Positions 9,464 to 20,785 of a stretch of DNA of 21,792 nt are shown here, one piece after another. The stretch's first letter is position 1. Every line of letters begins with the position of its first letter. This DNA comes from a virus (taxonomy: Duplodnaviria; Heunggongvirae; Uroviricota; Caudoviricetes): the IMG/VR virus record IMGVR_UViG_2718217715_000004, one strand, 5' to 3'. Under the pieces are notes generated by a model that was not told the origin of the DNA, searched no databases, and saw only the letters and a program-made list of their open reading frames with translations. The position numbers were made by a program, and so were the translations under genes.

Positions 9464-9990
9464 ATTGTGGGGCGACTGGCCACTCAACATCCGCTGCTAC
9501 TGTTGTATCAACACGATTCAACAATACCCGATATGTCTTCCATGCAGCCAGTAACGATGCCTCTTCCTCCGTCGCAATATCCAAATCTACGGCATCCTGA
9601 AGTGGCGCAATATGCTCACTGGCTACCTGCATCAGGCTGTTTTTTGTTTCTTCTGCCTCCCGTACCCGAAACAGTTTTTCTGCTTCTGCATCTTTCGCCC
9701 AGGATGTGCCGTTCCACTTCTGACACTCTCCATCCGGCGACAACCAGGTAACATTTTCCGGTAACGGACCGAGTTCAGAAATAAATAACGCGTCGCCGGA
9801 AGCCACGTCATAAACCGTTTTACCCCGATGATCTTCAACGAGATGCCACGATGCCTCATTACTGTTGAAAACAGCCACGAAGCCAGCCGGAATATCTGGC
9901 GGTGCAATATCGGTACTGTTTGCTGGCAGACCTGTATGAGGCGGAATGTATGCGTCACCTTCACCAATAAATTCATTAGTTCCGGCCAGC
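9462..9990 (-). pseudogene. tfa: Tail fibre assembly protein (lambdoid Tfa/TfaQ-like), 5' end removed by the IS insertion
   Basis: Minus-strand frame is open from the IS boundary: ...[61 protein letters not shown]...[12 protein letters not shown]...EWPVAPQ, matching remembered Tfa proteins; about 17 N-terminal codons are missing (ORF track shows only 9462-9878). Confidence 0.8.
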
Positions 9991-10044: not shown

Positions 10045-10371
10045 ATGACTAAAAATACTCGTTTTTCCCCCGAAGTCCGTCAGCGGGCGATTCGTATGGT
10101 TCTGGAAAGTCAGGATGAATATGACTCACAGTGGGCGGCAATTTGTTCCATTGCCCCAAAGATTGGCTGTACGCCGGAGACTCTGCGTGTCTGGGTTCGC
10201 CAGCATGAGCGGGATACCGGGGGCGGTGATGGTGGGCTCACCAGCGCTGAACGTCAGCGTCTGAAAGAGCTGGAACGTGAAAATCGTGAACTGCGCCGCA
10301 GTAACGATATCCTTCGCCAGGCTTCCGCTTATTTTGCGAAGGCGGAGTTCGACCGCCTCTGGAAAAAATGA
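10045..10371 (+). CDS. IS3-family transposase OrfA
   Basis: 108 aa [27 protein letters not shown]...; 3 substitutions relative to copy A. Confidence 0.9.
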
Positions 10372-11258
10372 TGCCACTGCTGGATAAGCTGCGTGAGCAG
10401 TACGGGGTCGGACCGGTATGCAGCGAACTGCATATTGCCCCGTCAACGTATTACCATTGTCAGCAACAGCGACATCATCCGGATAAACGCAGTGCCCGTG
10501 CGCAGCACGACGACTGGCTGAAGAGAGAGATACAGCGCGTATACGATGAAAATCATCAGGTGTACGGTGTGCGTAAAGTCTGGCGTCAGTTGTTACGGGA
10601 AGGAATCAGGGTGGCCAGATGTACAGTGGCACGTCTCATGGCGGTTATGGGACTTGCCGGTGTTCTCCGGGGTAAAAAGGTCCGTACGACCATCAGCCGG
10701 AAAGCCGTTGCCGCAGGCGACCGCGTAAACCGTCAGTTCGTGGCAGAACGACCTGACCAGCTGTGGGTGGCTGATTTTACTTACGTCAGCACATGGCAGG
10801 GCTTCGTCTATGTGGCGTTTATCATTGATGTGTTTGCCGGATACATCGTGGGGTGGCGGGTCTCATCGTCTATGGAAACGACATTCGTGCTGGATGCGCT
10901 GGAGCAGGCGTTGTGGGCCCGTCGTCCGTCTGGCACCATCCATCACAGCGATAAAGGCTCTCAGTATGTGTCACTGGCCTATACGGAGCGACTAAAAGAA
11001 GCCGGATTACTGGCATCAACAGGGAGTACAGGCGACTCGTATGACAACGCGATGGCTGAGAGCATCAATGGTCTTTACAAAGCGGAGGTAATACACCGTA
11101 AGAGCTGGAAAAACCGTGCAGAAGTGGAACTGGCCACACTAACGTGGGTGGACTGGTATAACAATCGACGATTGCTGGGAAGGCTGGGCCATACTCCTCC
11201 GGCAGAAGCAGAAAAAGCTTATTATGCTTCCATCGGAAACGATGATCTGGCAGCCTGA
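10368..11258 (+). CDS. IS3-family transposase OrfB (DDE), -1 frame relative to orfA
   Basis: 296 aa; overlaps orfA at the GGAAAAAATGATG window. Confidence 0.9.
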
Positions 11259-11340: not shown

Positions 11341-11655
11341 TTATTCTGGGAATAAGGTCTGAATATTCTTTTTTATTTTATAAAAATTGCATTCAACTCC
11401 GCTAGGCTGATTAGCCTGGTATGTTTCCTTGATGCTAACGGTATTGAAGGGGAGGTTGTCCTCTGGCCATTCGGCCATCCAGTAGGCAAATGCTGGGTTG
11501 CGCTTTATGAGTGCTAGCCCAGCCAGAAAGGCCGCGCGTTGCGCGCGGCTGCGTTCGGAGGCTGGCAGGCTATCGAGGTAATTGCACGCCTCCTGTTCAC
11601 TCTTGACGGCGGCGGGCTTCAGATAGAAACTTATCCGTCTGGTTGGTGTCGTCAT
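11341..11655 (-). CDS. parR: ParR/StbB-like centromere-binding adaptor of a type II partition system
   Basis: 104 aa; RRISFYLKPAAVKSEQEACNYLDSLPASERSRAQRAAFLAGLALIKRNP aligns closely with remembered plasmid R1 StbB/ParR (RRTIAFKLNPDVNQTDKIVCDTLDSIPQGERSRLNRAALTAGLALYRQNP); lies directly downstream of parM. Confidence 0.75.
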   Translation of the reverse strand: MTTPTRRISFYLKPAAVKSEQEACNYLDSLPASERSRAQRAAFLAGLALIKRNPAFAYWMAEWPEDNLPFNTVSIKETYQANQPSGVECNFYKIKKNIQTLFPE

Positions 11656-11659
11656 TGGT

Positions 11660-12619
11660 TTACTCCTTGTTCATTGCGTACAACCCATTAACCAGAGCAA
11701 ACTGTGGCACCCCGTCCGCGATGAAAGTCGCATTAACTCCGCAGGCTTCGCGGATAGCGGTTGCCACAATCTCCGCCCCGCCACCGACAACCATCACCCG
11801 CCCGTAACCCGAAAAAACCGCCAGCGCGCGGATCACGCGTTGTTTCAGTGTTTCTTCCTTTTCACGAATAACCGCCATCAGGCTGGCGTAATGCGCGTCA
11901 TTGTGGATGTGCTGGCGCAGCCAGGCTTCATCATGGCGATGTTCGATAATGGTATTGGCGATGTGGTGACTGGTGCGCATACCGTTAGTGGCCATCACCG
12001 ACAGTACGGCATCGGCCATCAGAGAAACGCCTACGTGTGGATCGCAAAACACCTGGCTGATACCTGCCAGTTGCCCCTGAACCTTTGCCACATCCAGCGT
12101 GGTTCCGCCCAAATCCACAATCAGCAGGGATTCAAACGGACTCATGTCAGCCAGTGCCTTAAAGCCAGCAGGAATGGATTCAGGCATAACCCGTACGTTA
12201 CGGATAGTGAATGCTTCGCCGTTCTGGTACTCCACCGGGCGCATGACGTTCGCTTTTTTGCGGTTGATGTTGGCCATGTCCGGCTGTGCGTTTGTATCGA
12301 AATACTCGCTCAGTGGCAGGGTGACAACCACATCCACTTCCTGTGGTGTGATGCCTGATTTGACCAGCGCGTGATGAATGGCAATTACATTCACATCGCT
12401 GTACTGGTATTGCGTGTCGGTCGTCTGGACAAAGCGATCGCTGACCGGATCAAAACCATAGCGCACGCCATCAAGCATGTAGTTCGCGGGCTGCGTGCCA
12501 CCGAATGGCGCAGACCATTCCGACTTGAAGCTGTTCGGGCTGATGGCGTTGCGGCGTTCGCCGTTCTCAGTCCATGCCAGCTTGATGTTGGTGGAGCCGT
12601 CGTCGATACAAATTTTCAT
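11660..12619 (-). CDS. parM: ParM/StbA-like actin-fold partition ATPase
   Basis: 319 aa; IDDGSTNIKL.W, ISPNSFK.EW, QYSDVNV.A.HHAL, FTI..V.VMPESIPAG, LLIVDLGGTTLD, VVGGGAE, LVNGLY conserved with remembered R1 ParM; SD AAGGAAAA. Confidence 0.85.
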   Translation of the reverse strand: MKICIDDGSTNIKLAWTENGERRNAISPNSFKSEWSAPFGGTQPANYMLDGVRYGFDPVSDRFVQTTDTQYQYSDVNVIAIHHALVKSGITPQEVDVVVTLPLSEYFDTNAQPDMANINRKKANVMRPVEYQNGEAFTIRNVRVMPESIPAGFKALADMSPFESLLIVDLGGTTLDVAKVQGQLAGISQVFCDPHVGVSLMADAVLSVMATNGMRTSHHIANTIIEHRHDEAWLRQHIHNDAHYASLMAVIREKEETLKQRVIRALAVFSGYGRVMVVGGGAEIVATAIREACGVNATFIADGVPQFALVNGLYAMNKE

Positions 12620-12637: not shown

Positions 12638-12762
12638 GATTAATTAATCGGTTACAGGATTTTTAAATCCCGCTTTTGCCTGTTTTGTGCGCGCTTCATA
12701 TATCGCGGCGCGTTTTTTGCTCATTTACGGGATTTGTGAGTCCCGTTTCTGTCTGTTTTTTG
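12638..12762. repeat. Candidate parC-like region: 12-bp perfect palindrome GATTAATTAATC plus two ~33-bp imperfect direct repeats upstream of parM
   Basis: Palindrome at 12638-12649; repeats GGATTTTTAAATCCCGCTTTTGCCTGTTTTGTG (12657-12689) and GGGATTTGTGAGTCCCGTTTCTGTCTGTTTTTTG (12729-12762); the second repeat lies inside the 3' end of gene A, so function is speculative. Confidence 0.3.
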
Positions 12763-15518
12763 TTTCCACTGGTCAGGCCACCCCGCAGCAGGTCTGCTTT
12801 GCGGCTGGCGCGTTCAGTGGTTTCACTGATTCTCTGTGCGTGCTCTGCGTCGCGGATGGCGCGCAGCATGTCAGAAAGCACGGTAACGGGTGTTTTCATG
12901 GTGTTCTGGTCCTGCTGAAGTGTGGATGCCAGGCGTGCGGCGGCTTCAGGGTCTGATGCCCCCAGCTGTGCCAGATAGCTGGCGACCGGGTTATGGCGGA
13001 TCTCCGTGCTGCTTACGCCATGATTACGGCTCAGGCGCTGCCAGAGCTGCGTGATTCGGCTGTCCGGGCGGGTATCCGGTTTGCGTACAATTTCAAATCC
13101 CTGCGGTGCAATGATGCTGCCGTCAACGTACAGACTGCCGCCCCGTAACAGGTGCTGCATCTGTTGTTCACCGATATGCAGGCCGAGAGATTCAGCAGAC
13201 TCCCGCCATTCTTTAGCGAGTAATTCGTGGTTATCAGGCAAAGGCCGCTGCTGTTTGCGGCTCTGTGTCCAGCTCTGCATTTCATCACTGCTGTTTTTTG
13301 CCTGTTTGTCACGAAGCGAACGCATCAGCGCCCGGCGTTCGTGCCGTTTCAGTGAGCGCATCCATTCGTTCACGTCAACGCCGTCAGGAAGCTGCGGCCA
13401 CGGTGCTGGCCGTTCTTCCGGCTGTTCTGTCCCGTTGTTGTCCGTTTCCTGTACACGGGGACAGTTATTGCCACGAGTCCAAGGGGCGGCAGGGCCGCCC
13501 TGAAGGTCAAAACCATTTTCGCGGGCGCTGTCTTCTACTCCCGGTTTACGTCTTACCAGCTTCCAGTTATCCGGGTGCGTGCACACACGGGAGGATTCCC
13601 CGATGAGTGGTGACCAGATCCCGTAAATCTGTACGCTCTGTTCGCCGTAATCGTTCAGCTCATCTGCGAGGTCGTAGGCGGTGCGAATCAGGTAGTCCTT
13701 GCGTGGAACAAGTACGCCTCCCTGTTTCTCAATGTAGGTGGTAAAACATCCGGCATCAGCGGCAGCAAGAACCGCATCCATTGCGTCATCCTTCAGCCGT
13801 TGCGGGCCTTCCGGGTTGCGTGCCATCTGGCTGGCAAGGCGACGCAGTTCACGCCACACCTGACGGGAGGGGATGCCAAAGAACTGGAACTGGCGGACCC
13901 GGTGAAGGCGCGCCCAGCCAATGGCGCGTTCCACGCTCTCGGTCATTGATTTTCCGGTTTCGTGGTCAACGCGTGGTTTGCCTGTTTTCGGGTCGATGCC
14001 ATCCACGGCGCGGCTGTCCAGGTTTTTTCCGATGTAGGTGGCGATGTAGCTGGTTGGCGTGCCTTTTGAGCCGTCGACATACTCCGCCTTAAAGCGCGGA
14101 GTAATATCATCGCCCAGCTCGTGACGATCTTCCTGAATGGCAATATCGCGGGTGTGGGACACAATGGTGTCGATTTCTTCCGGATGAGCAAAGACCATCA
14201 TATGCCAGTGCACGGTGCCGTCATGGTGAGGCTCCACCGTGCGGATGCCATACCAGCGCAGGCCGTCGCGGTTCAGTTTCTTGCGGACCGCCGCAAAAAA
14301 CGTGTTAACCAGGTAATCGCTGGAGTCGCGCATGGTGGCCCCGTTCCATTTGGGATTCGGATGACCGTTCTCTGTTGTAGCGTGGTATTTTGACGGGCAG
14401 GTGACAGTCAGAAACACCGCTTTGTCGCCACGGGCTTCGGCCAGAAGTTCCAGCCCCTTCATGGTGGCCATCATTTCTGCCTTACGGTGAACCGGGTTAC
14501 TTACTCCCGCGTAATACACTGTCTCGAGATCAATCGTGAACCCGTCTTCGTTTTCCAGCATGAAACTTTTCAGGAAATCGCGTGTTTTCTCGCGCTGTGC
14601 GCGAAACTCGCTTAACGCGTCCTGGCTCAGATAGGGCGATGTTTTTCTGGAAACCAGACAGGCGGCGCGGAGTTGTTCTTCTCTCCACTCGCAACGTAAC
14701 AGCCACAGTTTGCGTTTCCACCATTCCGCACAGGTCAGGCGAAGGATTGCGCCCGGCAGCAGCTCCGTGTCCGGTTCGTTCCTCCGGTCTTTGTCTGTTG
14801 TCAGTGCGTCATAATGTGGAGGCATGGCGTGCAGGTGTAACGCCATGCGGGCCAGCATCTGATACGCCTTCAGCGTTACATCCATGGTCAGTTCGCCATC
14901 GGTCGCGCCAAAGCCATCGCAGAGTTTTTCGAAGGTGCTGCTGAACATCGCCGCCGTCATGGTGGCCAGCGTCTGTATCTGGTGTTTGTTGAGCTGCGGC
15001 AGGTAAAGCAAATCGTCCTGGCGTTCGCGTCCGGCAAGGGAGCGATAACCCTGTGTCAGCCAGCGGTGATCGGTGCGCTCCAGACGTTCGAATATTTTGC
15101 GCAGGTTTCCGCGCGCGTAGCGTTCAGCCTGCCAGCTCTTTTTGCCTTTCTGACGATCGGCTTCCTGTTTTTTGCGCAGGAAGGAGAGGTGGCGAATAAG
15201 CGGATCGCGCAGATAGGACGGCAGCAGGCGCAGCGAGGCCATGGCTTCATCCACCGCACCGCGTGCCTGTTTTCTGGCGTCTCCTGCCAGTGTGATGGTT
15301 TTGTCCTGTTTTTCCTGTGCGTCCAGGCTTTTATTAATCAGGTTGCCCAGCGGCGTTGCGGAGAACGCCGCATCAGCCATTTCCTGGCGGCGCTCGTTCT
15401 CTACCCGGTAGGCATCCAGCCAGGAGGAAAGCGCGGATTCAGGAGCGGGGATCCCCGTTCCTTCACGCCCCACTGCGTGGCGCGGTTGTTGCCAGTCCCT
15501 GATGTACTCTGCCGTCAT
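12696..15518 (-). CDS. A: P2-type replication initiation endonuclease gpA (rolling-circle, HUH class)
   Basis: 940 aa; HUH-type motif TVHWHMMVFAH and paired tyrosines SYIATYIGK, typical of the phage GPA family; longer than P2 A as remembered. Confidence 0.75.
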   Translation of the reverse strand: MTAEYIRDWQQPRHAVGREGTGIPAPESALSSWLDAYRVENERRQEMADAAFSATPLGNLINKSLDAQEKQDKTITLAGDARKQARGAVDEAMASLRLLPSYLRDPLIRHLSFLRKKQEADRQKGKKSWQAERYARGNLRKIFERLERTDHRWLTQGYRSLAGRERQDDLLYLPQLNKHQIQTLATMTAAMFSSTFEKLCDGFGATDGELTMDVTLKAYQMLARMALHLHAMPPHYDALTTDKDRRNEPDTELLPGAILRLTCAEWWKRKLWLLRCEWREEQLRAACLVSRKTSPYLSQDALSEFRAQREKTRDFLKSFMLENEDGFTIDLETVYYAGVSNPVHRKAEMMATMKGLELLAEARGDKAVFLTVTCPSKYHATTENGHPNPKWNGATMRDSSDYLVNTFFAAVRKKLNRDGLRWYGIRTVEPHHDGTVHWHMMVFAHPEEIDTIVSHTRDIAIQEDRHELGDDITPRFKAEYVDGSKGTPTSYIATYIGKNLDSRAVDGIDPKTGKPRVDHETGKSMTESVERAIGWARLHRVRQFQFFGIPSRQVWRELRRLASQMARNPEGPQRLKDDAMDAVLAAADAGCFTTYIEKQGGVLVPRKDYLIRTAYDLADELNDYGEQSVQIYGIWSPLIGESSRVCTHPDNWKLVRRKPGVEDSARENGFDLQGGPAAPWTRGNNCPRVQETDNNGTEQPEERPAPWPQLPDGVDVNEWMRSLKRHERRALMRSLRDKQAKNSSDEMQSWTQSRKQQRPLPDNHELLAKEWRESAESLGLHIGEQQMQHLLRGGSLYVDGSIIAPQGFEIVRKPDTRPDSRITQLWQRLSRNHGVSSTEIRHNPVASYLAQLGASDPEAAARLASTLQQDQNTMKTPVTVLSDMLRAIRDAEHAQRISETTERASRKADLLRGGLTSGNKKQTETGLTNPVNEQKTRRDI

Positions 15519-15524
15519 AGTGAT

Positions 15525-15890
15525 TTACTTCGTCATGCCATTCAGGGTGTCGCGGCAGGCTGTAGCCAGCCGCTGAATTTCCAGCACGGTGTCTTCTGTG
15601 TCGGCATGGCGATGTGTGATGCGGATGCTGTCGGCAATCACATCGACGATTGCAGAGGATGGGCGCTGGTAAATGCCAATAACGGACGGGGTGCCACCTT
15701 CAATGCGGTAAAGCCTGTAATTTCCCTCGTGGCTGTCAATCATGTAGCGACCATCAATAACAATCTTTCCGTCAGCGAGCTGCGGTACAGGCAGGGATTT
15801 CAGGTACATGTCATAACGATCACGCACGCGAGCGGCAAGATCACGTTCTGTGTTGAGCAGGTATTCAAGAAAGTCGTTGGCGAGAATCAT
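15525..15890 (-). CDS. Hypothetical early-operon protein (121 aa) immediately upstream of A
   Basis: ORF with SD AGAGGA; no recognisable motifs. Confidence 0.5.
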   Translation of the reverse strand: MILANDFLEYLLNTERDLAARVRDRYDMYLKSLPVPQLADGKIVIDGRYMIDSHEGNYRLYRIEGGTPSVIGIYQRPSSAIVDVIADSIRITHRHADTEDTVLEIQRLATACRDTLNGMTK

Positions 15891-15962
15891 TGCGGCAATC
15901 CTCTTGTTACAGATGTGCGAAGGCCTCCCGCCGCAAGGTGCAGGAAAGGCCCGGAACAGGAA

Positions 15963-16193
15963 TTAATGGAGTTTGTTTTGCTGCTGGATGAGCTGTTGAA
16001 ACTCGTGCAGATCATCCGCCAGATAGCTGAAAACAGAGGCGGAATAAATGTTTGATAGTGCGTGGCTGCGCTCATGCAGCATATTGATGTGCATGATTTG
16101 CGCGACGCGTGATGCGCGGGAAAGTCTGCGGTTGATTTCAGTCTGGATGTGACGACGCTCCGCGATAGCGCGGTGCTGTTTGCGGTCTGCCAT
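15963..16193 (-). CDS. Hypothetical small basic protein (76 aa)
   Basis: ORF with SD AGAGG; preceded by a structured intergenic region. Confidence 0.45.
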   Translation of the reverse strand: MADRKQHRAIAERRHIQTEINRRLSRASRVAQIMHINMLHERSHALSNIYSASVFSYLADDLHEFQQLIQQQNKLH

Positions 16194-16372
16194 GGTGTGG
16201 CCTCTTTGCTCGGTGATAGAAATAACTCACCATCCAGAGTTGAGAATCTCGGGGTGGCGAGACGTACAGGGTTCTCAACACCGGAGAGCAAAGAATCCGG
16301 CCCGACCGAAGTCGGCCCCGTACGCCCCGCCATAATTCTGACGCGAAAAAGACGTGGCAATACAGTACGCAC

Positions 16373-16393
16373 AAAAAAACCGCTAGCGCGGTT
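16373..16393 (-). terminator. Rho-independent terminator on the minus strand
   Basis: Read on the minus strand: stem AACCGC / GCGGTT, loop GCTA, followed by T-run (GCGGTTTTTTT). Confidence 0.5.
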
Positions 16394-16464
16394 ATGCGCT
16401 TTGCTCTGTATCGGGTTGAGAATCCCGGCACCCGTTTTATGAGGTGCAGCGGAAATGTAACCTG

Positions 16465-16494
16465 ACCGATTGCGGCATGGCAAGCGGTTTTTTT
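16465..16494 (+). terminator. Possible plus-strand intrinsic terminator (convergent with the minus-strand one)
   Basis: Imperfect stem ACCGATTGC / GCAAGCGGT followed by T7 on the plus strand. Confidence 0.3.
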
Positions 16495-16515
16495 GTGTGT
16501 GCATGTTCTGGTTTC

Positions 16516-16815
16516 TTACTGGTTCAGAAAAAAATCAAAAACGTTATCGATGCGTTGCAGCAGCTCTTGCTGCATTGCTTCCGGCGTTTCCGGTTCGCCA
16601 GGTGCCCCCAGCGTTGCGCAGAAATCAGCGATTTCATGATGGAGCGTGAGGCGAATGGCAGGAGCCGTGGTTCTGGCGTGCTCCAGCTGATCCAGCAGTG
16701 CCAGCACAGCAGACGGCGAGAGCATTGCGCGAAATGCCAGTAATTTTTGAGGCGTTGCCATTCGTTGCAGGGCAAATGCCAGTTCGCGTAGCTTCTGGTG
16801 GTTGATGGTGCTCAT
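16516..16815 (-). CDS. Hypothetical protein (99 aa)
   Basis: Start overlaps the stop of the upstream gene by 4 nt (ATGA), indicating translational coupling. Confidence 0.5.
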   Translation of the reverse strand: MSTINHQKLRELAFALQRMATPQKLLAFRAMLSPSAVLALLDQLEHARTTAPAIRLTLHHEIADFCATLGAPGEPETPEAMQQELLQRIDNVFDFFLNQ

Positions 16816-17078
16816 GCTCTGGCTTCCTTCAGTAGCTGGTTAAACATGTGAGTAAGTGGATTGCTACACCCGAACGGCATCGGGTTTACGTGGTAAGAAG
16901 CCTGGCCTCCTGTTTTGCGAGCGCGACCACCTGTGCTGCGGTTTGTTCTGATGACTAAGCCGCCGCGCCAAAGTCGGCGTAACTCAGCATTAATGGCTGT
17001 GGTTGGGGTATTCAGTGCTGCGGCGATCTCTCCGCCGCTACACCCCGGATGAGTAGCGATGTAGTCCAGAATGGTCAT
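16812..17078 (-). CDS. Small winged-helix-type DNA-binding protein (88 aa)
   Basis: GGEIAAALNTPTTAINAELRRLWRGGLVIRT pattern typical of winged HTH; 4-nt overlaps with both neighbours. Confidence 0.5.
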   Translation of the reverse strand: MTILDYIATHPGCSGGEIAAALNTPTTAINAELRRLWRGGLVIRTNRSTGGRARKTGGQASYHVNPMPFGCSNPLTHMFNQLLKEARA

Positions 17079-17278
17079 CTGCGTGGCTCCTGTACCTGTC
17101 GGATAAGATTTACTCGCGCCACGTTGGTGGCGCAGAAGTAAGTGCCGTCAGTGAGGTAGATGTGGTGTGCATCCTTTTCCGAACGATGTTTGTCGATAGT
17201 GGTAATCAGGCGTTCGTCGACCTCGTATTCGCGCCCTCTGGAGGTAAAGCGAACGACGGGAAAATGCTTAATTGCCAT
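17075..17278 (-). CDS. Hypothetical protein (67 aa)
   Basis: Strong SD AAGGGGG; first gene of a three-gene coupled set. Confidence 0.5.
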   Translation of the reverse strand: MAIKHFPVVRFTSRGREYEVDERLITTIDKHRSEKDAHHIYLTDGTYFCATNVARVNLIRQVQEPRR

Positions 17279-17301
17279 TGCGCCCCCTTTGTCCAGTAAC
17301 C

Positions 17302-17718
17302 CTATGCGTTAAATACGGCACGTTGCGCGTCATCAATGAATACAGCTTGAGAGCGTTCTATCAGGCGGAGATTTGTCAGAAGCTCTGACTCTTTTGTGTG
17401 GTAAGGCGTTATCAGGTATTTGCCGTGCAGTTCGGCAATAATGGTGTATTGCAGCATCATTGCTGAACCAAGAATATAAATGCAGCGTCCAATGCTGGAC
17501 GGATTCATGGCTGCAACTGTTGACTGTGTTTTAAGAGTGTCGATTTCTTTGCTCTGTTCCTCAATAACTTTGGCTGCTTCAGGGGTGGCTATTGCGATGG
17601 TCAGTGCGTAAAGCGCTGCCATATGTTGATTATCTTTCTGGGCTGCCCTGGACAGCTTGTCTTGCTCTGCTGACACTATTTTTAATGTATTGATAATATT
17701 TTTTTCTTTTGCGTTCAT
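17302..17718 (-). CDS. Hypothetical protein (138 aa), AT-rich
   Basis: ORF with SD GGAG; no recognisable motifs. Confidence 0.5.
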   Translation of the reverse strand: MNAKEKNIINTLKIVSAEQDKLSRAAQKDNQHMAALYALTIAIATPEAAKVIEEQSKEIDTLKTQSTVAAMNPSSIGRCIYILGSAMMLQYTIIAELHGKYLITPYHTKESELLTNLRLIERSQAVFIDDAQRAVFNA

Positions 17719-17810
17719 TTTATATCTCCGTTATTTACGTGTGCGAATACCTCCGCGAATGCGGATAGTTTTCAGGTTTTCGGGTTTAATCTGGTGTTCT
17801 GTTTAAGCTG

Positions 17811-17924
17811 TTATTTGTCAGTGAAAAAGCGTTCAATCTTTTTTACTGAATGAATAATTCGCATAATCCCAATGGCGCAGGCCACCGAAATAATCAGAAC
17901 AAGCCATGAGATAAATATACTCAT
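17811..17924 (-). CDS. Unlisted small ORF: 37-aa single-pass membrane peptide MSIFISWLVLIISVACAIGIMRIIHSVKKIERFFTDK
   Basis: Translated by hand; ATG overlaps the TGA stop of the upstream 80-aa gene (ATGA); SD GGGGAA 6 nt upstream; hydrophobic helix then basic tail. Below the 60-aa cutoff of the ORF track. Confidence 0.4.
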   Translation of the reverse strand: MSIFISWLVLIISVACAIGIMRIIHSVKKIERFFTDK

Positions 17925-18163
17925 GCGATATTCCCCAGCTTATATGGTTCAATGTGTTCCCCGCATTCTGCGGCACAGATCAGCTCGGAAAGTTCGTTAA
18001 GTGCATCCAGATCATCAGCGTAAAAAGCAACGTCATACAAACTCCGGATTGCCCTGGTCAATGAGTCACGGGCTGCACGTTCAGCATGAGCGCCTGATGC
18101 ACTTAAGCGAAAATAAAATCGTTCAGGTGCTTTGTTAATGAGAGTTTTATATTCTTTGCCCAT
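17921..18163 (-). CDS. Hypothetical protein (80 aa)
   Basis: ORF in the early operon; stop overlaps the start of the 37-aa peptide ORF. Confidence 0.5.
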   Translation of the reverse strand: MGKEYKTLINKAPERFYFRLSASGAHAERAARDSLTRAIRSLYDVAFYADDLDALNELSELICAAECGEHIEPYKLGNIA

Positions 18164-18174
18164 CGCAACGCCCT

Positions 18175-18453
18175 TTAATCTGCTTTCTGAATTTCAGCTT
18201 CTGAATCCATACAAATAATTTCGATATAGGGTTCATCGCCATTAACCTGACGAGCCTTTTCAGCTTCGCTAATGATTTCTCGTACGGTCTGGTACGGAAG
18301 CTCCACAGTCAGGCGCGTACCGTTCAGATAAACGTAAGTAGCTGCGTTTTTTTCGGATGGAACAATTCCGTCAATGGCTGATGCGCGTAATAACAGTTCA
18401 CCGCGAAAATCAATAAAACGGATAAATACACCTTGTGCATGCTCTTTGGTCAT
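18175..18453 (-). CDS. Hypothetical protein (about 92 aa; start taken at the internal ATG with SD AGGTG)
   Basis: The ORF track start at 18513 would overlap the upstream gene by 50 nt; ATG 18451-18453 has a proper SD and leaves a 10-nt gap. Confidence 0.45.
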   Translation of the reverse strand: MTKEHAQGVFIRFIDFRGELLLRASAIDGIVPSEKNAATYVYLNGTRLTVELPYQTVREIISEAEKARQVNGDEPYIEIICMDSEAEIQKAD

Positions 18454-18463
18454 AAAGCACCTG

Positions 18464-18814
18464 TTATAAATCAGCCTGTTTAATAAAACTTTGCCCGCGA
18501 AGCAGACGATCAACCGTGCGAAGTGCTTCGTATAATGTGAAATCCTGCCCGAAGTGATTGTCGCCGCAGTTCAATGCAAAAATGCGGTTCCCGGTAAACG
18601 GATTGCGTGGGCATTTGTGGACCACGATTCCAGCTTTCTCAATCAGCCAGGCATGTTCGCCGATTTGTTTTACAGCGTGGCCATCCGGTGTTGCATGCGT
18701 CTCGTTCAGGTTATAGCGACTGTTACTACGTGATGCACTGGTAGCGACGTGGTGTACATGGCGTTCTACGCCATTACGAAATTTGGAGTATGGATTATTA
18801 GCGTTTTTTTTCAT
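18464..18814 (-). CDS. Hypothetical His/Cys-containing protein (116 aa)
   Basis: ORF; HVHHV...H...CPRNPFTGN...CGDNHF could be a metal-binding motif; unassigned. Confidence 0.5.
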   Translation of the reverse strand: MKKNANNPYSKFRNGVERHVHHVATSASRSNSRYNLNETHATPDGHAVKQIGEHAWLIEKAGIVVHKCPRNPFTGNRIFALNCGDNHFGQDFTLYEALRTVDRLLRGQSFIKQADL

Positions 18815-18835
18815 GATGGTGCTCTGTTCATTGTT

Positions 18836-19039
18836 TTAGCTGTTAGCCAAAGCGTCTTTTAACATCGCCACAAGGTTTACTTCAGGCTTTTCCATTTTGG
18901 CGCGTTTGGGGCGGATAATAATTCGACCGTCAGCCAACATCTTTTTGCATGTATTAAGAGGGATACCTGTTATCTCTGCATATTTCTGCAGGGATACATA
19001 GGGGGCATTCACATTGATATTGATGGTTATACCTGACAT
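18836..19039 (-). CDS. Cox/Apl-like small HTH protein (putative excisionase / early-promoter regulator)
   Basis: 67 aa; NAPYVSLQKYAEITGIPLNTCKKMLADGRIIIR resembles the P2 Cox region AIPYQEFAKLIGKSTGAVRRMIDKGKLPVI as remembered. Confidence 0.5.
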   Translation of the reverse strand: MSGITININVNAPYVSLQKYAEITGIPLNTCKKMLADGRIIIRPKRAKMEKPEVNLVAMLKDALANS

Positions 19040-19055
19040 CCCACTAGCCTCCTGA

Positions 19056-19262
19056 TCAGGAAGATTTGTTTTGTTCTTTCTGGGTTAGCTCTAGGCCGCG
19101 AAGGGAGATCATGCGCGCCATGTTAGAGGATGAGCGTTGTTCTTTAGCTGCCATTTCATCAATGACGGCTCGCTCCTCGAGGGACAGCCGAAGTGCCAGT
19201 CTTGGACCTGTGGCGGTGTTACGCGGAATGCGTGATCTGGTATCGTGAAGAACTTGTTTCAT
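19056..19262 (-). CDS. Ribbon-helix-helix (CopG/Arc-like) DNA-binding protein
   Basis: 68 aa; RLALRLSLEERAVIDEMAAKEQRSSSNMARMISLRG fits the RHH beta-strand/helix-turn-helix pattern; weak SD, so start or reality is uncertain. Confidence 0.4.
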   Translation of the reverse strand: MKQVLHDTRSRIPRNTATGPRLALRLSLEERAVIDEMAAKEQRSSSNMARMISLRGLELTQKEQNKSS

Positions 19263-19304
19263 AGTGGTATATTGTGATCATCTAATAGCTCGTGAAATCA
19301 TTTT

Positions 19305-19322
19305 GGTATCAAAAAAGATACC
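19305..19322. promoter_or_regulatory. Candidate operator: perfect inverted repeat GGTATC-N6-GATACC in the divergent-promoter region
   Basis: Read directly; an extra GGTAT half-site at 19266-19270; lies between the RHH/Cox early genes and the XRE repressor gene. Confidence 0.3.
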
Positions 19323-19337
19323 TGTCAAGGTTTTTGT

Positions 19338-19742
19338 ATGAAAAATGATATTGGTCGGCGGTTGCGTGAGGAAAGGGAAAGATTGGGACTTAGTCAAGTT
19401 GCCATGAGCGACATTGGTGGAGTCAAAAAGCTAACTCAGCTTAGATATGAGAAAGGAGATAGCTTTCCTGATGCTGCGTATTTGGCAGCGCTGTCTCGTT
19501 TTGGCCTTGATGTTCAGTATGTTGTGTTGGGAATTCACTCACCTGAAACTTATAACGATGATGAGCAGGAATTGATTACTCGCTTTCGAGCAGCTTCGTT
19601 AGATGTGAAAAACGCGGTGATTGGGGCTTTAAAAGGTGCGATCAGTGAAAAGGAAACTCAGCCATCAGGACGTGAGTTAAATATTTCTGGTGGTAATAAC
19701 CGTATCGCTGGTCGTGACTATAACGAAACTAAGGGTAGGTGA
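19338..19742 (+). CDS. XRE-family HTH protein, probable immunity repressor (P2 C / 186 CI analogue)
   Basis: 134 aa; RLREERERLGLSQVAMSDIGGVKKLTQLRYEKGDSFPDAAYLAAL is a classic Cro/C1-type HTH; divergent from the early operon and on the same strand as int. Confidence 0.7.
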   Translation: MKNDIGRRLREERERLGLSQVAMSDIGGVKKLTQLRYEKGDSFPDAAYLAALSRFGLDVQYVVLGIHSPETYNDDEQELITRFRAASLDVKNAVIGALKGAISEKETQPSGRELNISGGNNRIAGRDYNETKGR

Positions 19743-19757: not shown

Positions 19758-20408
19758 ATGGCCGTCAACTCAAACGGTTCAAACAATCGCGTTGCTGGGC
19801 GTGATTTTCACGAAAAGAATATTCAGATAGAGCGATATGATGGTTCTCATACCGTCAATATCGCAATCCCTTCGAATAATGATGATGACGATCGCCCTTT
19901 GCTTAAGGCTCAGCGTAAGGAGCTAAATAGCTTGGTTGCTGCTATTGCAGAAGCTAGCAATACTGAAGCGTTTATTATTTGGCAAAAAGTACATGCGGAG
20001 ATTGGTGTAGCTGGTATTGATGATATGACAGTAAATCAATATAAAACAGCGGAGAGTTTTCTGCATGCAATGCTTGAGCGATGTAAAGATCATGATGCCT
20101 GTAAGGCTCTTGTAAGTTTATTACTACGTAACAGTGAAGACTGTGGACTTCGACAAAAACTTCTGCGGTATTGCCATATCAATTTCGGTACAGGACGTTT
20201 AAACGATCTTACTCGTTCTCAGTTACAGTCTGCATTGTCGTGGTTAGAGCAACAATCGGCATCAAGCCACATAGAGAGTTCGACCTTACCAGAAGTCCGA
20301 CTTCGTGCTTCAGAATTAATCCGACTTTATCCAAAAGAAATAATATTCTTTATCTGCGTAGGGGTTTTGGTAGGCGGTGTCATTTCTAGGGCGTTTTTTA
20401 ATTTGTAA
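19758..20408 (+). CDS. Hypothetical 216-aa protein with a C-terminal transmembrane anchor, in the lysogeny operon
   Basis: Strong SD GGGAGG; C-terminal hydrophobic helix IIFFICVGVLVGGVISRAFF; N-terminus shares a motif with the repressor C-terminus; AT-rich. Confidence 0.6.
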   Translation: MAVNSNGSNNRVAGRDFHEKNIQIERYDGSHTVNIAIPSNNDDDDRPLLKAQRKELNSLVAAIAEASNTEAFIIWQKVHAEIGVAGIDDMTVNQYKTAESFLHAMLERCKDHDACKALVSLLLRNSEDCGLRQKLLRYCHINFGTGRLNDLTRSQLQSALSWLEQQSASSHIESSTLPEVRLRASELIRLYPKEIIFFICVGVLVGGVISRAFFNL

Positions 20409-20437: not shown

Positions 20438-20785
20438 ATGAAAGTAAAAAAGGTTCAACTATTAGTTACTTTTTTATCTATGTTTTCTTTTTCCGCCGTC
20501 GCAATGCCTTTTAAAACTATTGAACGTGAGAGTTTCAATGGGGTATGGCCATTTAATACTGATGAGGTTCAATTACAGTGTCTTGATGGTAATCCTTATG
20601 TGATGAATTTTGACGATAATAAGTTATATGCACTTACAGGTTTGGCTCGAATAAAAGGTAAAACATTTGGTGCGTTACCGTTAGATAACAATAATCCATT
20701 TTGGCTAGATAATGATGCCGCCCCAGGGTTAAAAAAGAGTCTGGGGGATGTCACTAAGGCTGCATTTGATTTATGTGATAAGTAA
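20438..20785 (+). CDS. Secreted/periplasmic 115-aa protein, possibly YebY/DUF2511-like
   Basis: Signal peptide MKVKKVQLLVTFLSMFSFSAVA; two Cys (near WPFNTDEVQLQC and C-terminal DLC); similarity to YebY (WAFN.EEV.L.C..GN) is from memory only; SD GAGGT. Confidence 0.55.
   Translation: MKVKKVQLLVTFLSMFSFSAVAMPFKTIERESFNGVWPFNTDEVQLQCLDGNPYVMNFDDNKLYALTGLARIKGKTFGALPLDNNNPFWLDNDAAPGLKKSLGDVTKAAFDLCDK

Follow-up and report, generated by a model that had tools for sequence, protein, structure and literature searches.

An RNA cassette of the P4 immunity type in the early operon of a P88-like prophage remnant

IMG/VR virus record IMGVR_UViG_2718217715_000004 is a Caudoviricetes DNA of 21,792 nucleotides (nt), and this whole stretch is called the window here. 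Its positions 15,525 to 19,262 carry a dense run of small genes ahead of a replication gene of the P2 gene A type. The run is quite probably the leftward early (lytic) operon of a P2-like prophage, in which an RNA cassette of the kind known from satellite P4, P1 immI, and Gifsy-1 gates a homologue of the P4 epsilon gene together with gene A. That the cassette is a functional antisense system is very likely, and its net effect is fairly likely to be the gating of the epsilon-like gene and A. A first-pass annotation of the same DNA had described about eleven small early genes of unknown function, and had treated 16194-16515 as a gap with a terminator. The tight run of genes is real, but there are 12 in the span and 10 between the Cox-like gene and A. 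The internal terminator is present as well (a stem at 16393-16378 followed by a T-run), and the supposed gap around it holds two RNA genes.

The cassette occupies 323 nt of non-coding DNA (16194-16515) between the open reading frames (ORFs) of 99 and 76 amino acids (aa). Two Rfam RNAs, isrK and C4, lie here on the operon strand (Table 1). They correspond to seqA and CI of P4 (PMC3632133, PMC10111431). As a positive control, both Rfam models match the experimentally defined P4 CI RNA (74.9 bits) and seqA region (60.8 bits). Both also match the equivalent place in phage P88, and neither matches the early regions of P2, 186, PSP3, and WPhi or the whole Fels-2 genome. RNAs of the C4 type are stable, about 77-80 nt long, processed from a longer transcript, and repress their target in trans.

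Three sets of boxes connect the parts of the cassette. Box b' of the C4-like RNA is exactly complementary to b1 in the isrK-like leader and to b2 in the downstream target, and box a' is exactly complementary to a1 and a2, at 8/8 positions each. No further paired a/b sites occur in the window besides those of the cassette. Box b2 overlaps the ribosome-binding site of the epsilon-like gene. In the predicted fold of the unprocessed 265-nt leader (minimum free energy -108 kcal/mol, z = -5.4), the C4 loops pair in cis with a2/b2 and the Shine-Dalgarno sequence. Between 16190 and 15518 there are no promoter-like or terminator-like sites on the minus strand, and the cassette therefore lies on the path of every transcript to gene A.

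The two annotated records that were inspected do not mark these genes as RNA. RefSeq has no feature in the stretch, and the P88 record places a spurious hypothetical protein (gp13, 3355-3543, plus strand) over the cassette on the opposite strand. Several other E. coli genomes carry the label 'ash family protein' over the matched stretch. A 205-aa ORF at 15887-16504 on the minus strand was rejected as spurious, as its reading frame differs from that of the epsilon-like gene, which it covers together with the RNA cassette.

The relatives of the element show that the pairing is maintained. The epsilon-like protein served to gather 85 related loci, comprising 80 contigs of IMG/VR, three genomes, P88, and E. 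coli O157:H7 EC4115, and in 85/85 the cassette immediately precedes the epsilon homologue. Outside the three box sites, which change together, the cassettes of the window and P88 are about 97% identical. P88 has the alleles TTTCCAC / GTGGAAA and CAACTACAG / CTGTAGTTG at all three positions. The 85 relatives have at least five a-box and at least nine b-box alleles in at least 11 combinations, with allele changes always consistent at a1/a'/a2 and at b1/b'/b2.

Pair counts were taken from an alignment of 19 alleles. Compensatory changes affect five of the eight pairs in helices b'-b2 and b1-b', where 98.7% and 100% of cells are paired, and four of the eight in helices a'-a2 and a1-a', with 92% of cells paired in each. 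In slid controls the a1/b1 helices are 27-58% paired, and the whole structure with the a2/b2 helices is 36-49% paired. The internal C4 stems are 99.7-100% paired, also with compensatory changes, and the hexamers of the PLE-like promoter are invariant or nearly so in the 19 alleles. The conservation of stems and promoter hexamers together with covarying boxes thus indicates ongoing selection on pairing. Mean summed duplex energies are -24 kcal/mol for cognate alleles, -16.4 where one box is common, and -10.4 where both boxes differ. The a1/b1 and a2/b2 boxes pair with C4 at -23.6 and -24.0 kcal/mol, respectively.

Among 5426 complete E. coli genomes, 1154 have a match covering at least 80% of the 561-nt segment made up of the cassette and the epsilon-like gene. 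A scaffold-agnostic pattern search of IMG/VR for the exact b'/a' allele of the window recovers 39 loci, 37 of them new and two already in the sample. None of these shows a satellite context, and in 39/39 the epsilon-like gene of a P88-type phage comes next. Cross-immunity with satellites was considered and rejected, since the exact allele was found by this search only in P88-type phages. Two IMG/VR contigs (L113 and L120) have the exact b'/a' allele of the window, but their epsilon-like proteins are 76-80% and their gene A products about 52% identical to those of the window. They carry the same RNA specificity in a clearly different P2-like lineage, either by cassette exchange or from a common allele pool. 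A 226-kb contig labelled Vagococcus sp. WN89Y has a complete P88-type early region, with 87% identity in the epsilon-like protein and 74% in the DUF4761 protein. Contamination or a mislabelled assembly is likelier there than a genuine host jump.

The proposed mechanism follows the order of the operon, which would run from a Pe-like promoter through the Arc-like gene, the Cox-like gene, eight small protein genes, the RNA cassette, the epsilon-like gene, and a DUF5405-like ORF to gene A. The leader would be transcribed from the PLE-like promoter, and from Pe as well in lytic growth. Part of this transcription would end at the isrK terminator and part would read through. The C4-like RNA would be cut out of the leader transcript and accumulate, and its b'/a' boxes would pair with a2/b2, hiding the Shine-Dalgarno sequence and blocking translation of the epsilon-like gene. 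By polarity, the untranslated leader would also lower transcription of the 121-aa ORF and gene A, in the way that CI acts on the P4 replication genes, because no promoter-like or terminator-like site separates the cassette from A. The a1/b1 boxes would serve as a second target, as in P4, or as a competing decoy that relieves repression, as IsrK does in Gifsy-1, and would thereby set a threshold. The cassette would then place the antirepressor-like and replication genes behind a second gate, one of RNA, for immunity or induction and with a specificity separate from that of the C/Cox switch.

The closest known layout is that of P4, whose immunity region has the order PLE - seqA - CI RNA - seqC - kil/eta - epsilon - orf151 - alpha. 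The P4 PLE promoter (TTGCCT-18-TATAGT) has the same relative place as TTGCCA-18-TACATT in the window and resembles it in the -35 hexamer and the 18-nt spacer. In both, a1/b1 are followed by b'/a' and then by a2/b2, with b2 running into a Shine-Dalgarno sequence, a homologous epsilon gene lies downstream, and a replication gene ends the operon. The differences are also clear. The window element is a P2-type phage of the helper class with its own C/Cox switch and not a satellite. A kil/eta ORF precedes epsilon in P4, whereas b2 abuts the epsilon-like gene in the window. P4 has the alpha primase-helicase, and the window has a nickase of the gene A type. The box sequences differ, and the ORF after the epsilon-like gene is unrelated to P4 orf151/orf106.

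P1 and P7 have a second immunity specificity beside their main repressor, and its alleles differ by compensatory box changes. The immI regions of P1 and P7 (c4 - icd - ant) and the N15 region (CB RNA - antA) resemble the window in having a C4-family RNA, two boxes complementary to flanking sites, and an antirepressor-type gene downstream. In contrast, the window has no icd-like leader ORF, and its regulated protein is epsilon-like rather than of the Ant or KilA type. Its cassette sits in a P2-like early replication operon and has far more alleles (at least 5 x 9 boxes). The C4-family relationships among P1/P7 immI, N15, and P4 are as stated in the literature (PMC3632133).

Many E. coli O157:H7 genomes, such as EC4115, have a chromosomal segment that is 100% identical to positions 15400-19400. 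P88-type phages (genus Xuanwuvirus, family Peduoviridae) are 91-94% identical to the same positions over 73-78% of the length. The EC4115 copy adjoins yecA/tyrP and has the integrase, the repressor side, the early operon, gene A, and parM-like genes. The rest of that copy consists only of tail genes split by insertion sequence (IS) elements, and the ORFs of the window are arranged consistently with this. The ORF and annotation tables of the element contain no recognizable head, packaging, or lysis genes. By its sequence, the element is a P88-like (Xuanwuvirus, P2-family) prophage remnant, and it is defective because beyond the integrase-to-parM-like genes only the IS-broken tail genes remain. 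It fits the published prophage Sp13 of O157, a match that rests on the description in the paper. Sp13 is the sole P2-like prophage of O157 Sakai, is without most morphogenetic genes, and carries a P4 epsilon homologue (PMC2669165). It is inducible by mitomycin with a delay, though its repressor has no peptidase motif (PMC2669165). P88 was also obtained following mitomycin treatment.

A switch that activates, rather than a gate that represses, is known from Gifsy-1 of Salmonella, where IsrK controls the antirepressor AnrP, and where Hfq binding and trans-activation have been shown (PMC4825925). The isrK - orf45 (STnc1160) - anrP region shares with the window an isrK-family leader with its own promoter and a leaky terminator, a complementary processed RNA, and an antirepressor gene (PMC4825925). 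In Gifsy-1, which is lambdoid, short IsrK activates via a coupled upstream ORF, whereas the window has no such ORF, and the antirepressor families are unlike. Activation of this kind is possible in the window, if not to be expected, and would be a variant of the RNA gate rather than an exclusive alternative. The terminated isrK-like RNA would act as an anti-antisense RNA in trans, and its a1/b1 boxes would bind b'/a', free the epsilon-like ribosome-binding site, and trigger induction. The promoter-like site of the leader and its strong intrinsic terminator lead one to expect a short isrK-like RNA, and the a1/b1 boxes are complementary to C4 as fully as a2/b2 and covary equally. Gifsy-1 IsrK supplied in trans lifts AnrP translation about 140-fold (PMC4825925), and mitomycin C acts on Sp13 and P88 even though they have neither a cleavable repressor nor a Tum-like gene. 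However, the closest layouts, P4 and P1, act net as repression or immunity. In addition, the window lacks a counterpart of the orf45 leader ORF, b2 directly adjoins the Shine-Dalgarno sequence of the epsilon-like gene, and neither a LexA box nor another signal-responsive element can be seen.

The protein downstream of the cassette resembles P4 epsilon at 32% identity over 50 aa in BLASTP (E 6e-9), in addition to its Pfam match (Table 1). P4 epsilon acts on the repressor of the helper phage. Clustering of the 1.3 kb upstream of the DUF4761 gene separates at least 12 C/Cox immunity cassettes among the relatives, and the cassette type of the window (134-aa repressor, Arc-like protein, and 67-aa Cox-like protein) is common to 15 of them. 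RNA alleles assort freely with the C/Cox cassettes, and the two are therefore independent specificity determinants. This arrangement is comparable to immC and immI of P1. The epsilon-like protein may conceivably be an antirepressor of its own C protein.

Several points weigh against reading the cassette as a repressing gate on an antirepressor gene and gene A. The epsilon-like protein is 89-100% identical across at least 12 C/Cox cassettes, and this near-constancy argues against a dedicated antirepressor of its own C protein. The identity of the function gated by the cassette is therefore uncertain. The isrK RNA of Gifsy-1 activates its downstream antirepressor, so the sign of the regulation in vivo is not readable from sequence. 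There is no LexA box in or near the cassette, which leaves the tie to mitomycin induction unexplained and would make any link between the cassette and SOS an indirect one. The supplements of a paper on Hfq cross-linking and immunoprecipitation in enterohaemorrhagic E. coli have no entry for Sp13, isrK, or P2-like. Most ORFs of the stretch remain without any mechanism, and the prophage is defective, so the cassette may no longer matter for the copy in the window. SOS control of the epsilon-like gene by analogy with 186 Tum was also considered and rejected, as a search for CTGT-N8-ACAG that allowed one mismatch came up empty in and around 15900-16520. The motif has a single exact match, inside gene A.

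A joint reading accommodates the constancy of the epsilon-like protein, and is put forward as a rather doubtful one. P88-type phages, which are present in about a fifth of complete E. coli genomes, would possess a further immunity determinant of the P4 CI type, made of RNA only, that gates the epsilon-like protein and A. Heteroimmunity groups would then be set by the two-box alleles (at least 5 x 9), independently of C/Cox. The epsilon-like protein would be a broad-range factor and not an antirepressor of its own repressor, for example derepressing other resident P2-type prophages or tying mitomycin induction to the non-cleavable repressor. If this were true, the immunity-plus-epsilon block of satellite P4 would be a borrowing from its helper phage class or a common heritage with it.

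The stretch may also be viewed mainly as a reservoir of small early host-takeover or anti-defence proteins, with the slot 1 138-aa protein, the slot 2 cargo, and the DUF proteins as effectors. This is unlikely as the main role, though compatible with the RNA gate. Spacing between conserved genes identifies two genuine cargo slots whose contents differ between relatives. Slot 1 separates the 37-aa gene from the 67-aa gene. A member of the 138-aa family fills it in 44 relatives and some other ORF of 76-135 aa in nine, while 33 have nothing there. The 138-aa family has 31 sequence variants in these 44 loci and homologues only in Escherichia, which would be compatible with an arms-race gene. Slot 2 follows the 99-aa gene and precedes the isrK promoter. 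Sixty relatives carry no cargo there, 13 have the P88-type 276-aa protein (annotated in P88 as a lipoprotein / SPFH-domain protein) and a 67-aa membrane protein, and others have a 186-aa protein or different cargo. In 15 relatives a divergent 129-aa form stands in place of the last ORF before A. The corresponding region of 186 encodes the division inhibitor Fil and the host replication inhibitor Dhr. The comparison of gene content with relatives, which the first-pass annotation had proposed, thus reveals variable as well as uncharacterized genes in the form of the two slots and the alternative last ORF.

However, searches of PADLOC, NCBIfam, PDB sequences, and folds gave no evidence of an anti-defence role and no likeness to a known effector, and the majority of the ORFs belong to the conserved core of the phage lineage rather than to its variable cargo. 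PADLOC gives just one sub-threshold match to the ORFs (E 0.05) and NCBIfam no meaningful one. PDB sequence searches with the DUF4761 and 138-aa proteins give E values of 0.1 or above or no match. Neither of these two modelled proteins has a significant fold match, with generic ones only for the 138-aa protein. Nothing was found in the literature on DUF4761, DUF4754, and DUF5405. The small proteins are an uncharacterized but ordinary set for a temperate phage early operon. A motif had been thought assignable to none of the ORFs, and this is incorrect for six of them (Arc-like, Cox-like, MarR_2, Ead_Ea22, 'Derepression', and DUF5405-like). The description of the ORFs as of unknown function applies to about half, six to seven being without assignable function.

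It is highly improbable that the cassette is an inert remnant of recombination with a P4-like satellite (immunity region and epsilon) with no role in a helper-type phage, since, even though its layout and epsilon homologue are otherwise characteristic of P4 and P2, 186, Fels-2, PSP3, and WPhi lack it, it keeps the same place in 85/85 relatives and in the 39/39 loci recovered by RNA allele alone, is present in 1154/5426 complete E. coli genomes, must be crossed by every transcript to the essential gene A, and has conserved hexamers and stems with covarying boxes, a covariation that largely refutes inertness.

Earlier publications describe the two RNA families, what they do in P4, P1, N15, and Gifsy-1, and the epsilon homologue of Sp13. 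The literature searched contains no description of an isrK/C4 cassette in P2-like early operons, of its allele diversity, or of its independence from C/Cox. A 2026 survey of P2-like viruses has no mention of Xuanwuvirus, antisense, derepression, anti-defense, or hotspot. The small early genes are already in public records as hypothetical proteins, and the added value is the RNA cassette. With a repressing gate on the epsilon-like gene and A, one P2-like lineage would join a C/Cox protein switch with an antisense-RNA gate of the P4/P1 type on an antirepressor-like gene and the replicase. The cassette is a testable lead on the mitomycin induction of O157 Sp13 and P88, whose repressors cannot self-cleave and which have no Tum-like module. 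The covarying box alleles are a natural set of orthogonal RNA-RNA specificities, and bear on the sharing of, or competition for, immunity functions between helper phages and P4-like satellites.

The surrounding operon resembles the early regions of P2 and 186 in its divergent repressor, early Cox/Apl-like function, small overlapping ORFs, internal terminator, probable DUF5405-type ORF before A, and A-type replicase. The window differs in having no Tum/DinI-like SOS module, and in its isrK/C4 cassette, which also separates it from Fels-2, PSP3, and WPhi. When all ORFs of the window were compared by tblastn with the P2 and 186 early regions, only int and A matched. P2 orf78, B, and orf80-82 and 186 cII, fil, and dhr have no tblastn homologue in the window, and there is no Pfam match of the DUF2732 or DksA type. 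P2 has six genes from cox to A (orf78, B, and orf80-83), as stated in the first-pass annotation, and the window indeed has more, with ten ORFs and two RNA genes.

On the minus strand from 19262 to 15525 there is an unbroken run of 12 small ORFs, followed by the 940-aa gene A homologue (Table 1). Eleven of the 12 match PHROG families at E values of 1e-27 or less. The exception is the 37-aa ORF, which is kept in 81 of the 88 loci compared for ORF conservation, at 84-100% identity. The early ORFs are thus real genes. The 4-nt overlaps reported between them are present at 17075-17078, 16812-16815, and 17921-17924. The Pe-like promoter candidate lies 38 nt upstream of the first early ORF and faces the divergent repressor gene. 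RefSeq omits the 68-aa Arc-like gene and instead calls a 45-aa ORF on the opposite strand (19111-19248), which is without any family match.

Table 1. Features of the early region, listed in the direction of early transcription.
Feature	Position	Strand	Sequence or evidence
Divergent 134-aa helix-turn-helix repressor	19338-19742	+	Opposite Cox-like gene
Early promoter candidate (Pe-like)	19300-19328	-	TTGACA-17-CAAAAT, 10/12 consensus matches; consensus match only
68-aa Arc-like ribbon-helix-helix protein, first early gene	19056-19262	-	phrog_3431 'Arc-like repressor', E 4.3e-27, full length
67-aa Cox/Apl-like excisionase-repressor	18836-19039	-	phrog_575 'Cox-like excisionase and repressor', E 1.2e-27
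116-aa DUF4761 protein, conserved core early gene	18464-18814	-	Pfam PF15958
92-aa (from ATG) conserved early protein, orphan family	18175-18453	-	phrog_3800, E 7e-59; in 79/88 compared loci; no match in Pfam or NCBIfam
80-aa DUF4754 protein	17921-18163	-	Pfam PF15946, E 4.5e-53; in 82/88 compared loci
37-aa hydrophobic, probable membrane peptide	17811-17924	-	4-nt overlap with preceding gene; annotated as membrane protein in P88
138-aa accessory protein, orphan family, variable slot 1	17302-17718	-	phrog_9338, E 1e-78
67-aa conserved early protein, orphan family	17075-17278	-	phrog_3459, E 1.1e-45; overlaps winged-helix gene
88-aa MarR-type winged-helix DNA-binding protein (predicted)	16812-17078	-	Pfam MarR_2, E 2e-7, 31.5 bits vs cut-off 27; phrog_1687, E 1.1e-31
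99-aa protein, Ead/Ea22-like N-terminal segment	16516-16815	-	phrog_4144, E 3.9e-62; Pfam Ead_Ea22, E 9.7e-4, below cut-off; P88 homologue annotated Ead/Ea22-like
P4 PLE-like promoter candidate	16454-16483	-	TTGCCA-18-TACATT, consensus scan; ends 7 nt before isrK 5' end
isrK / P4 seqA-like leader RNA	16373-16447	-	Rfam RF01394, 63 bits vs gathering 50, E 1.4e-11
Box a1, loop of isrK hairpin 2	16415-16422	-	TTCTCAAC
Box b1, in isrK-like leader	16399-16406	-	GAGCAAAG
isrK intrinsic terminator	16378-16393	-	Stem and U-run
C4 / P4 CI-like antisense RNA	16250-16337	-	Rfam RF01695, 78.5 bits vs gathering 45, E 3.8e-14, full model 1-87
Box b', loop of C4 hairpin 2	16286-16293	-	CTTTGCTC
Box a', single strand adjoining C4 hairpin	16272-16279	-	GTTGAGAA
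Downstream target (seqC-like)	16201-16246	-	Boxes a2 and b2
Box a2	16239-16246	-	TTCTCAAC
Box b2	16204-16211	-	GAGCAAAG; runs into epsilon-like Shine-Dalgarno
Shine-Dalgarno of epsilon-like gene	16201-16205	-	AGAGG, 7 nt before ATG
Start codon of epsilon-like gene	16191-16193	-	ATG
76-aa homologue of satellite P4 epsilon (helper derepression / antirepressor)	15963-16193	-	Pfam PF25738 'Derepression', E 1.1e-7, 31.9 bits vs cut-off 27
121-aa protein directly upstream of gene A	15525-15890	-	Probable distant P2 Orf83 / 186 DUF5405 homologue with N-terminal extension
940-aa gene A-type rolling-circle replication endonuclease	12696-15518	-	Pfam Phage_GPA, E 2.4e-131; 31-35% identity to P2 and 186 A

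Three of the small proteins and the 121-aa ORF carry further features. The 138-aa protein has an N-terminal helical hairpin, confidently modelled by AlphaFold2 at residues 3-68, and a small conserved C-terminal domain. The 67-aa ORF at 17075-17278 and the 88-aa winged-helix ORF match different parts of one 246-aa family, phrog_19053. They evidently form one protein in some phages, and may here be a split gene pair that works together. The 121-aa ORF aligns with P2 Orf83 and its 186 homologue over 76 columns in hhalign (probability 74%, E 2.9e-5), and has the same position before gene A as the DUF5405-type ORFs of P2 and 186. Its match to Pfam DUF5405 is below the cut-off (E 0.098), and a 71%-identical relative carries PF17399. 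Homology of this ORF to the post-epsilon P4 ORFs (orf151 and orf106) was rejected at an hhalign probability below 1%.

Directly 3' of gene A are two genes that the EC4115 RefSeq annotation gives as a ParM-like actin-type segregation ATPase and a small partition/stability protein (11341-11655 and 11660-12619, minus strand). A plasmid-style partition pair is unusual for an integrating P2-like prophage. Two IS3-family copies, at 1775-2988 on the minus strand and 10045-11258 on the plus strand, flank the remaining block of tail genes. Both contain the Rfam ALIL frameshift pseudoknot (2591-2707, minus; 10326-10442, plus). The IS layouts of the window and EC4115 differ by a few hundred bases, and the window is therefore from another O157-type strain. 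The tape-measure gene is frameshifted into ORFs at 5349-7475 and 7352-8188. Rfam IS009 has a full-length match of 191 bits at 9499-9697 on the minus strand, in the tail-fibre-assembly / acetyltransferase area. A patch of low G+C content (0.35-0.40) at 8500-9500 has a 201-aa ORF that is annotated in EC4115 as serine O-acetyltransferase and is likely moron cargo. The 3' part of pgsA (1-549) and three tRNA genes (701-999), which form a Gly-Cys-Leu cluster in EC4115, lie on the plus strand and are the chromosomal flank on the far side.

Two plus-strand genes sit between the repressor and the integrase. The first (19758-20408) encodes a 216-aa protein of phrog_5825 with a C-terminal hydrophobic tail and weak similarity to Ant-type and membrane-protein PHROGs. 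The second (20438-20785) encodes a 115-aa DUF2511 protein with a signal-peptide-like N-terminus. Both accompany the immunity cassette of the window type in 15 relatives. Neither matches PADLOC, and they are probably lysogenic-conversion cargo. PSP3 likewise has a DUF2511 gene beside its int.

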